DNA of 35,688 bases. Origin: a virus (taxonomy: Duplodnaviria > Heunggongvirae > Uroviricota > Caudoviricetes). A program made the position numbers and the translations under genes. Below, piece after piece: positions 20,058 through 20,277 of the stretch; position 1 is the first letter of the stretch; every line of letters begins with the position of its first letter. Under the pieces are notes generated by a model that was not told the DNA's origin, did no database searches, and was given only the letters and a program-made list of their open reading frames with translations. The stretch lies in IMG/VR virus record IMGVR_UViG_2740892230_000015. One strand, 5' to 3'.

Positions 20058-20083
20058 AAAAAAACGCCCACCCGAAGATGGGC
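20058..20083 (-). terminator. rho-independent terminator in the leader upstream of the tRNA cluster
   Basis: Minus strand GCCCATC-TTCG-GGTGGGC followed by GTTTTTTT. Confidence 0.55.
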
Positions 20084-20227
20084 AAACTGGAAGCTCGTAA
20101 CGCACTTCGGTGTTGCCACTTAGGCGTATGGTCAACCTGGCAACTCGGCGTCATGAGGGGGAAGGAGTCACTACCCCGCCATACTTGCCGCCGCGCCTGT
20201 CGCGGCTAACAGCTAAATCGCTCTATA

Positions 20228-20277
20228 AATCACGATTCATTGAGGCGATATTACACTAATAAATTTATTAGAGCAAT
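20228..20277 (-). promoter_or_regulatory. C1-operator pair overlapping a strong sigma70-like promoter
   Basis: Perfect operator on the minus strand (ATTGCTCTAATAAATTT, plus 20261-20277) overlapping an inverted partial copy. TTGCTC-N17-TAATAT reads toward the tRNA/ban side. Confidence 0.6.

Follow-up and report, generated by a model that had tools for sequence, protein, structure and literature searches.

The minus strand of a 35,688-nt stretch of DNA from a virus of the class Caudoviricetes (IMG/VR record IMGVR_UViG_2740892230_000015; "the window" below denotes this whole stretch) carries, between positions 20277 and 20058, the start of the ban operon as it is annotated in the records of phages P1 and P7. 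By analogy with the loci of the small RNA (sRNA) DicF in lambdoid prophages, we consider it reasonably probable that this interval specifies a C1-controlled leader RNA of the DicF-locus type, which would be produced by early termination while read-through feeds the operon behind it. An earlier note, made from the sequence alone, had read the interval as either a repressor-controlled small RNA or an attenuator that gates read-through into the tRNA-tciA-ban operon. These two alternatives need not exclude each other, and both might hold at once, since at DicF loci early termination yields an sRNA while the distal genes of the same operon depend on read-through. Two elements of the region are new: a structured, covariation-supported RNA domain of the DicF locus, distinct from DicF and tied to a terminator, and an element resembling part of a transfer-messenger RNA (tmRNA) that lies between this terminator and the tRNA genes. 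The earlier note had missed both, as well as an inverted operator half-site, the identity of the promoter and operator with P1ban and Op72, and the presence of a region that the P1 record labels "dicF-like."

The leader starts at P1ban and its C1 operator

Positions 19400 to 20700 share 97 to 98% identity with phages P1 and P7 and with many P1-like phage-plasmids, and the gene order (dmt, followed by trnA, trnT, tciA, and ban) is that of the P1 and P7 records, which identifies the window as P1/P7-type phage or phage-plasmid DNA. The C1 operator match that the earlier note had described, overlapping the −35 hexamer of a TTGCTC-N17-TAATAT promoter, was recovered without a single mismatch to the asymmetric 17-bp operator consensus (Table 1). 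It is joined by a second half-site in inverted orientation, and the two together make up a bivalent operator, the Oban ab (formerly Op72ab) of the P1 record. Both the P1 and the P7 record annotate P1ban and Oban a/b (Op72) at the matching position. We found no substantive difference from the P1 arrangement: the same elements occupy the same place, at the dmt stop codon and upstream of trnA-trnT-tciABC-ban. By sequence, promoter and operator are thus the long-known P1ban/Op72, here in a P7-like relative. Binding by C1 (with Bof) and repression in vivo are taken from published work on P1, as reflected in the annotation of its record. A simple promoter scan did not flag P1ban, because only 8 of its 12 consensus positions are matched. 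Transcription probably starts near position 20241.

The operator consensus is rare enough for these matches to stand out, with seven occurrences in the window at three or fewer mismatches against 0.14 expected from shuffled sequences. The five matches outside the ban promoter presumably mark other C1-controlled promoters of the phage.

The leader contains an RNA domain shared with DicF loci

The P1 record's "dicF-like region" maps to about 20150 to 20052. A sensitive search with positions 20058 to 20245 found lambdoid phages that are 81 to 83% identical over leader positions 41 to 138. Matches to this domain occur in 4,417 of 5,426 complete E. coli genomes, at up to eight places per genome; none of these places is annotated, and no Rfam family covers the domain. 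In phage mEp460 and in a K-12-like chromosome, where the copies lie between ydfC and dicB, 24 nt separate the end of the match from a downstream DicF with a full Rfam score (76.7 bits), which shows that the conserved part is a domain upstream of DicF and not DicF itself.

To assess its structure, we aligned 24 diverse copies (alignment A3) and analyzed them with RNAalifold and explicit counts of base pairs, using slid partners and shuffled alignments as controls. In this alignment, 95.6% of the cells are paired, compared with 31 to 55% in the slid controls; nine pairs have changed on both sides, and none of 500 shuffles reached the observed covariation score. The helices supported are a closing helix, the hairpin H1, P2 (CGGY/RCCG) enclosing H2, H3 (GUUGYCA/UGRCAAC), and a candidate pseudoknot (GYAUGG/CCAURC) in which one pair varies between U-A, U-G, and C-G across copies. 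The evidence for structure in the leader is this covariation and not the folding energy of any single sequence. H1 is the additional GC hairpin to which the earlier note had drawn attention, and it is found in the window as CCGCG-ACAGG-CGCGG. While the label "dicF-like" was already known, a pseudoknotted, covariation-supported domain of about 110 nt without an Rfam family appears to be new.

P1-type and P7-type copies differ by compensatory changes in H2, P2, and the pseudoknot, which argues for continued selection on the domain within P1-like phages. In H2, the difference between the window and P1 preserves pairing (CGGGG...CCCC versus CUGGG...CCCAG). This suggests mosaic exchange of the H2 arm. 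Identity to P1 drops to 89.5% over the first 188 nt of the leader in both the window and P7, against 96 to 99% in the flanks, a pattern that hints at mosaicism.

A side observation concerns the lambdoid phage cdtI (locus L127, positions 29 to 217, minus strand), in which a C4 antisense RNA (68 bits) adjoins isrK (60 bits). A copy of the DicF-locus domain is present in this phage as well, and the spacer and hairpin behind it are not those of DicF.

Table 1. Coordinates of promoter, leader, tmRNA-like element, and neighboring features in the window
Feature	Position	Strand	Details
C1 operator half-site Oban a (Op72a)	20261-20277	minus	ATTGCTCTAATAAATTT; 0 mismatches; overlaps −35 hexamer and dmt stop
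Inverted C1 operator half-site Oban b (Op72b)	20250-20266	plus	2 mismatches; overlaps −10
Sigma-70 promoter P1ban	20248-20276	minus	TTGCTC 20276-20271; 17-nt spacer; TAATAT 20253-20248
Further C1 operator match	4631-4647	minus	1 to 3 mismatches
Further C1 operator match	6723-6739	plus	1 to 3 mismatches
Further C1 operator match	6772-6788	minus	1 to 3 mismatches
Further C1 operator match	10396-10412	plus	1 to 3 mismatches
Further C1 operator match	23783-23799	minus	1 to 3 mismatches
Multi-helix domain	20095-20214	minus	Homology to lambdoid prophages; covariation
GC hairpin H1	20205-20191	minus	CCGCG/CGCGG; part of domain
Helix P2		minus	CGGC/GCCG; part of domain
Helix H2	within 20180-20155	minus	Part of domain
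Helix H3	20144-20112	minus	GUUGCCA...UGGCAAC; part of domain
Candidate pseudoknot	20184-20179 with 20131-20126	minus	GUAUGG with CCAUAC
47-aa open reading frame	20154-20011	minus	Only sizeable one; runs through terminator into tmRNA-like core
P1-type spacer	20084-20111	minus	ACCGAAGUGCGUUACGAGCUUCCAGUUU; at position of DicF seed in prophage loci
Predicted intrinsic terminator	20058-20084	minus	UGCCCAUC-UUCG-GGUGGGCG, then U7
tmRNA-like core without tRNA-like domain	19872-20055	minus	Contains GGUUUUCGUC
Core hairpin	20033-20002	minus	
Resume context	20001-19988	minus	UAAAU GCA
Tag reading frame	19996-19964	minus	GCA...GCC UAA; ANDDLMMVAA*; 10 codons; stop codon in hairpin loop
Pseudoknot A	19950-19916	minus	
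Pseudoknot B	19914-19879	minus	
Long hairpin 3' of core	19796-19877	minus	GCACAACAGGUAAGGGCGCUGG ... GGUCAGCGUCCUUUCCUGUUGCG; homologous to core-flanking hairpins of other phages
Second long hairpin	19347-19437	minus	tRNA-like tip with T-arm GGGUUCGAAUCCC; directly after tRNA-Thr
tRNA-Asn	19592-19517	minus	First annotated gene that read-through would reach
tRNA-Thr	19514-19439	minus	Next annotated gene after tRNA-Asn
Third tRNA	17932-18007	minus	Anticodon CAT; ARAGORN: tRNA-Met
dmt open reading frame	20268-22532	minus	Upstream neighbor; stop codon 20268-20270

The domain is coupled to a terminator

Downstream of the domain, the UUCG-tetraloop hairpin with its run of seven U residues, on which the earlier note had based its terminator, has a predicted stability of −12.8 kcal/mol, and none of 200 shuffled sequences was equally stable. 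Its stem (20084 to 20065) has eight pairs by scan, and the minimum-energy fold draws it as 7 bp closed by the UUCG loop; the U7 follows at 20064 to 20058. A stable GC-rich hairpin with a U run directly after it is the signature of an intrinsic terminator, and we predict one here. Variants of the element exist: the copy in phage D6 has U6, and one IMG/VR variant carries pair-preserving changes. From a start near 20241, a terminated RNA would measure about 178 to 184 nt, slightly more than the 150 to 170 nt proposed in the earlier note. That note also placed the leader upstream of the tRNA-tciA-ban operon, which stands; its terminator, on the other hand, does not directly precede the tRNA genes, because the conserved tmRNA-like element described below intervenes.

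Across 153 copies of the domain gathered from IMG/VR and other loci, a hairpin followed by at least five T residues lies within 17 to 60 nt 3' of H3 in 134. What separates the two differs between loci. A DicF seed serves as the spacer in 78 copies and the P1-type CCGAAGUGCGUUACGAGCUUCCAGUUU in 43, about 30 copies have other variants, and UUU forms the 3' end of the commonest spacers. The window has 27 nt between H3 and the terminator hairpin, likewise ending in UUU; this P1-type spacer may be single stranded or form a weak hairpin. Its occurrence is confined to P1-like elements (477 E. coli genomes), and a BLAST search for complementarity to it in chromosomes returned only P1-like elements.

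A probable DicF-locus-type leader made by early termination

Taken as a whole, the P1 leader resembles a paralogous DicF locus that has a P1-specific spacer and terminator where the DicF seed and hairpin would otherwise stand. The likeness to the Qin/Kim locus (ydfC 3' untranslated region [3' UTR]-dicF-dicB) comprises the homologous domain of about 110 nt with its compensatory changes, the short spacer ending in UUU, the GC hairpin with its U run, and an operon that needs read-through. The P1 leader differs in that it lacks the mature DicF seed and hairpin, and in that its domain lies about 30 nt from a repressor-controlled promoter, whereas that of the DicF locus sits in the 3' UTR of a protein gene. 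Features of enterobacterial Hfq-dependent sRNAs that arise by early termination and end at terminators, such as DicF and SroC, are shared as well: a Rho-independent terminator with at least seven U residues, a U-rich stretch before it, and a position within a longer transcription unit.

DicF itself arises when transcription of the ydfABC-dicF-dicB operon stops early at a Rho-independent terminator and RNase E trims the product (PMC9438474), and it is by analogy with DicF that we propose early termination and trimming for the P1 leader. P1ban would be silent in the lysogen and become active once C1 is inactivated. The first 180 nt or so of the transcript would be noncoding and consist of the domain, the spacer, and the sRNA-type terminator. 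Most transcripts would end at the U7, yielding a discrete, C1-controlled RNA of about 180 nt that could be trimmed to a 3' fragment of about 45 to 55 nt able to bind Hfq, while the fraction reading through would supply the tmRNA-like RNA, tRNA-Asn, tRNA-Thr, tciABC, the third tRNA, and ban. What we observe is that promoter and operator are those annotated in P1, that the leader domain is homologous to the one at DicF loci and conserved in secondary structure, that the signature of a terminator is present, and that no reading frame is conserved; the transcription start, the efficiency of termination, processing, binding of Hfq, and the targets or function of the RNA belong to the model. For P1vir infection of hfq-deleted cells, a preprint (10.64898/2025.12.28.696737) reports a relative increase of ban, trnA, and dbn at 20 min and a decrease of the neighboring dmt, a compatible hint that would fit Hfq acting at the leader and is not specific evidence for it.

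Several observations weigh against this explanation. The Rfam model of DicF (RF00039) found no match in 19550 to 20350, even at an E value of ≤10; hence the part of DicF that acts on its targets is absent from the P1 leader, and membership of the leader in the DicF family was rejected. The closing helix, P0, is clear in the prophage copies but not in P1-type sequences, and the P1-type rows contribute most of the unpaired cells of helix 1 in alignment A3. The folding energy of the whole leader as a single sequence is unexceptional (z = −1.33). Phage D6 has kept the hairpin, the U run, and the tmRNA-like core, and lacks the domain and the P1ban arrangement, so that in evolutionary terms the hairpin may be part of the downstream element, and the domain may not be needed. 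Because ban must be expressed from P1ban, termination cannot be complete. A crude RNAduplex comparison of the P1 RNA with the translation initiation region of ftsZ (positions −80 to +40) gave nothing better than shuffled sequences, a result that is uninformative because the real DicF was not singled out either. Independently of these points, the shared hairpin and tmRNA-like unit of D6 is preceded by about 750 nt without annotation (locus L242, positions 430 to 1200), which take the place of dmt-Pban and of the DicF-locus domain and include another terminator-like hairpin, GAAGCCGACU...AGUCGGCUUC.

The label "dicF-like," which goes back to the annotation of the P1 genome, has hidden a conserved structured RNA domain that most E. 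coli genomes carry beside DicF. Its role could be studied cleanly in P1, since the domain lies about 30 nt from the inferred start of a switchable promoter (temperature-sensitive C1) and DicF is absent. Such work would clarify both how DicF-type sRNAs are produced and how the ban operon, with its replicative helicase and tRNAs, is dosed after derepression.

Alternative explanations for the leader

Alternatively, the leader might be a cis-acting, riboswitch-like attenuator, whose domain senses a ligand, a protein, or another RNA and thereby sets read-through, the short RNA being a by-product. A junction-plus-pseudoknot domain with invariant loop nucleotides, placed directly upstream of an intrinsic terminator in 134 of the 153 copies, is what such a device could look like, and the distal genes, dicB in the prophages and ban in P1, do need read-through. 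Moreover, in one IMG/VR variant an upstream GUGGG could pair with the 5' arm CCCAC of the terminator. Inspection of the window and of DicF-type copies, however, revealed no consistent antiterminator pairing, the distance between domain and terminator varies from 17 to 60 nt, no Rfam riboswitch model matched, and the spacer in the prophages is the functional seed of a trans-acting sRNA (PMC9438474). On balance, we regard an attenuator with no role for the short RNA as unlikely, though it is the most credible of the alternatives.

Less probable still is that the hairpin and U run form the 5' boundary of the tmRNA-like element, either as the relic of an acceptor hairpin or as a processing or stability hairpin, with the domain as a mosaic passenger. 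The pattern in D6, where homology begins only at the hairpin, speaks for this view, as does the long hairpin that other phages have in the same position before GUUUUCGUC. Genuine two-piece tmRNA genes have an acceptor hairpin directly 5' of GGUUUCGAC, and the 8-mer GCCCAUCU is present both in the P1 hairpin and at the 3' end of the acceptor piece of a betaproteobacterial (Gallionellaceae-type) two-piece tmRNA, although this identity may be due to chance. The lower identity to P1 of the leader than of its flanks would suit a mosaic origin. Against a mere boundary stand the U7 right after a stable GC hairpin, which is canonical for a terminator, and the compensatory changes between P1-type and P7-type copies of the domain.

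It is very doubtful that the domain acts like the put RNAs of phage HK022, which would bind RNA polymerase and make it ignore terminators. The position of the domain would suit such a role, because in P1 as in the dicB operons it has a promoter on one side and, on the other, a terminator that polymerase has to pass. Yet put RNAs are about 70 nt long, have two stems, and lie near their promoter (PMC9378689), which contrasts with a multi-helix junction of about 110 nt; the prophage copies lie about 900 nt from the likely PL region; and DicF is made by termination at the very hairpin that follows the domain (PMC9438474). With no similarity by blastn to positions 20000 to 32000 of HK022, the early region that includes putL and putR, and a different architecture, homology to put was rejected.

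A small protein encoded by the 47-aa open reading frame (ORF), the only sizeable one in the leader, can be dismissed with near certainty, because its ATG is missing in P1 itself (CTCATGACGCC is changed to AGACAAACCACC) and it is thus no conserved gene, and because it extends across the hairpin and U7 of the terminator and enters the conserved core of the tmRNA-like element, and its substitutions are compensatory in helices rather than codon-like; the earlier note had likewise seen no convincing ORF. Some database records place a "hypothetical protein" there, an annotation that is probably spurious.

A tmRNA-like core follows the terminator

Directly behind the terminator lies a conserved element that resembles the coding part of a tmRNA and has no tRNA-like domain (TLD). 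At gathering scores and at an E value of ≤10, Rfam offered no family for either the leader or this core, apart from weak sub-threshold tmRNA matches: a permissive scan gave a tmRNA_permuted match at 19964 to 20069 with 24.1 bits, against a gathering score of 47, driven by UAAAU GCA AAC GAU GAU CUG AUG AUG GUA GCG GCC UAA. Homologues of positions 20054 to 19861 were found in 293 phage records from unrelated families, among them P1-like phages, Ackermannviridae, N4-like Schitoviridae, Drexlerviridae, and others. The core is also present in at least 120 IMG/VR contigs, the source of the copies of lambdoid-prophage type, which have tRNA-Arg/tRNA-Met genes downstream. Among E. coli genomes, 670 contain the core, for the most part on P1-like plasmids and never with an annotation, and the phage homologues that we inspected are unannotated as well. 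Its copies occupy intergenic gaps on the same strand as the neighboring genes, and about half of them have tRNA genes a few hundred nucleotides downstream, mostly 330 to 790. As in the window, some copies in lambdoid prophages follow an intrinsic terminator.

Both the tag frame and the structure of the core are conserved. The reading frame comprises 10 codons and conforms to AN[DE]xxxxx[AV][AP]* in all of 126 copies, 125 of which end in Ala, and 17 different peptides are represented. Furthermore, an alignment of 50 diverse copies (A4) strongly supports the hairpin holding the stop codon and, 3' of it, two H-type pseudoknots: 89% of the cells are paired, compared with 34 to 44% when partners are slid, 18 of 33 pairs have changed on both sides, and 146 cells show such double changes against 50 in shuffles. 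Among the four pseudoknot stems, the numbers of pairs changed on both sides are 3, 3, 1, and 4.

The likeness to tmRNA coding pieces extends beyond the tag. The motif TAAATGCAAACGA plus 10 codons ending in Ala and stop has 115 matches when one genome per species is searched, and ARAGORN at default settings recognizes 98 of these as bona fide tmRNAs, mainly from Burkholderiales. A profile built from the phage copies of the core can be aligned with betaproteobacterial (Gallionellaceae-type) two-piece tmRNAs, along their coding pieces from the tag into the pseudoknot region (31 bits). What the core shares with tmRNAs and two-piece coding pieces is the context UAAAU GCA AAC GA, with GCA as the resume codon, a 10-codon AND...AA tag, a loop holding the stop codon, and two H-type pseudoknots. 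Unlike them, it has no G3-U70 acceptor stem, in-register T-arm, or CCA end that we could find. Beyond the tag, no homology was found to an Oxalobacteraceae tmRNA or to E. coli ssrA. ARAGORN at default settings called none of the 126 phage copies a tmRNA and found none in the window, and the 48-kb genome of phage CS01, which has the core, contains no tRNA or TLD anywhere.

Relaxing ARAGORN did produce calls, which we rejected. The one at 20118 to 19666 (-ps80) is noise, given 37 such calls in the 48 kb of CS01, and conflicts with helix H3. The other (-ps90), in the N4-like phage Bp4, spans 293 nt with the ends GGCAGGG/CCAUGCC, has C3-G70 and no CCA, and lies between flanks that other, related N4-like phages do not conserve. 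In Bp4 (locus L003), degenerate tRNA-like genes at 1310 to 1381 and 1673 to 1751, named tRNA-Ala(CGC) and tRNA-Cys(ACA) by ARAGORN, flank the core.

The tmRNA database papers that we consulted list phage tmRNAs only as complete genes or, in DS6A, as a TLD alone (PMC4131195), of which the present core is the converse. Our literature searches turned up no account of an element that combines a tag with pseudoknots and lacks a TLD. It is tempting to speculate that the core represents an undescribed class of RNA, found in P1, P7, and about 300 phage records, a tmRNA derivative that has a resume codon, a degradation-tag frame of 10 codons, and two pseudoknots but no TLD and whose expression in P1 would be gated by C1 and the leader terminator; we put this forward tentatively, as the sequences make it a possibility that falls short of being probable. 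The core could be a template that works with a partner, a decoy for rescue factors, or a relic that is decaying and yet conserved across families. If functional, it could be a phage template fed into host trans-translation via a partner, or a decoy that interferes with ribosome rescue (SmpB, S1, RNase R), and in either case it would connect phages with ribosome rescue in a way that can be tested. A functional core would also account for the long gaps without annotation that precede tRNA clusters in many phages used as models or in therapy.

Long hairpins and neighboring tRNA genes

In most phages, the core lies between two homologous long hairpins with variable tips, some of which are tRNA-like. 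The hairpins, which flank the tRNA genes as well as the core, form a family (GGUAAGRGC... / ...GCYCUUUCC) that can be extended by ACAAC/GUUGU, for example, in the IMG/VR loci L029, L011, and L065, and some tips resemble a tRNA without a D-arm and with the same T-arm as the second long hairpin of the window (Table 1). In the window, the 5' hairpin is replaced by the terminator hairpin. These structures may serve in processing or may be tRNAs that have degenerated. We rejected a reading of them as acceptor/P2 helices of a tmRNA, whether standard or permuted, because the order of elements never fits, and the extended complementarity at their bases favors two self-contained hairpins. Farther downstream, the P1 homologue of the tRNA with anticodon CAT is annotated as tRNA-Ile2 (trnI), an isoleucine tRNA of the lysidine type.

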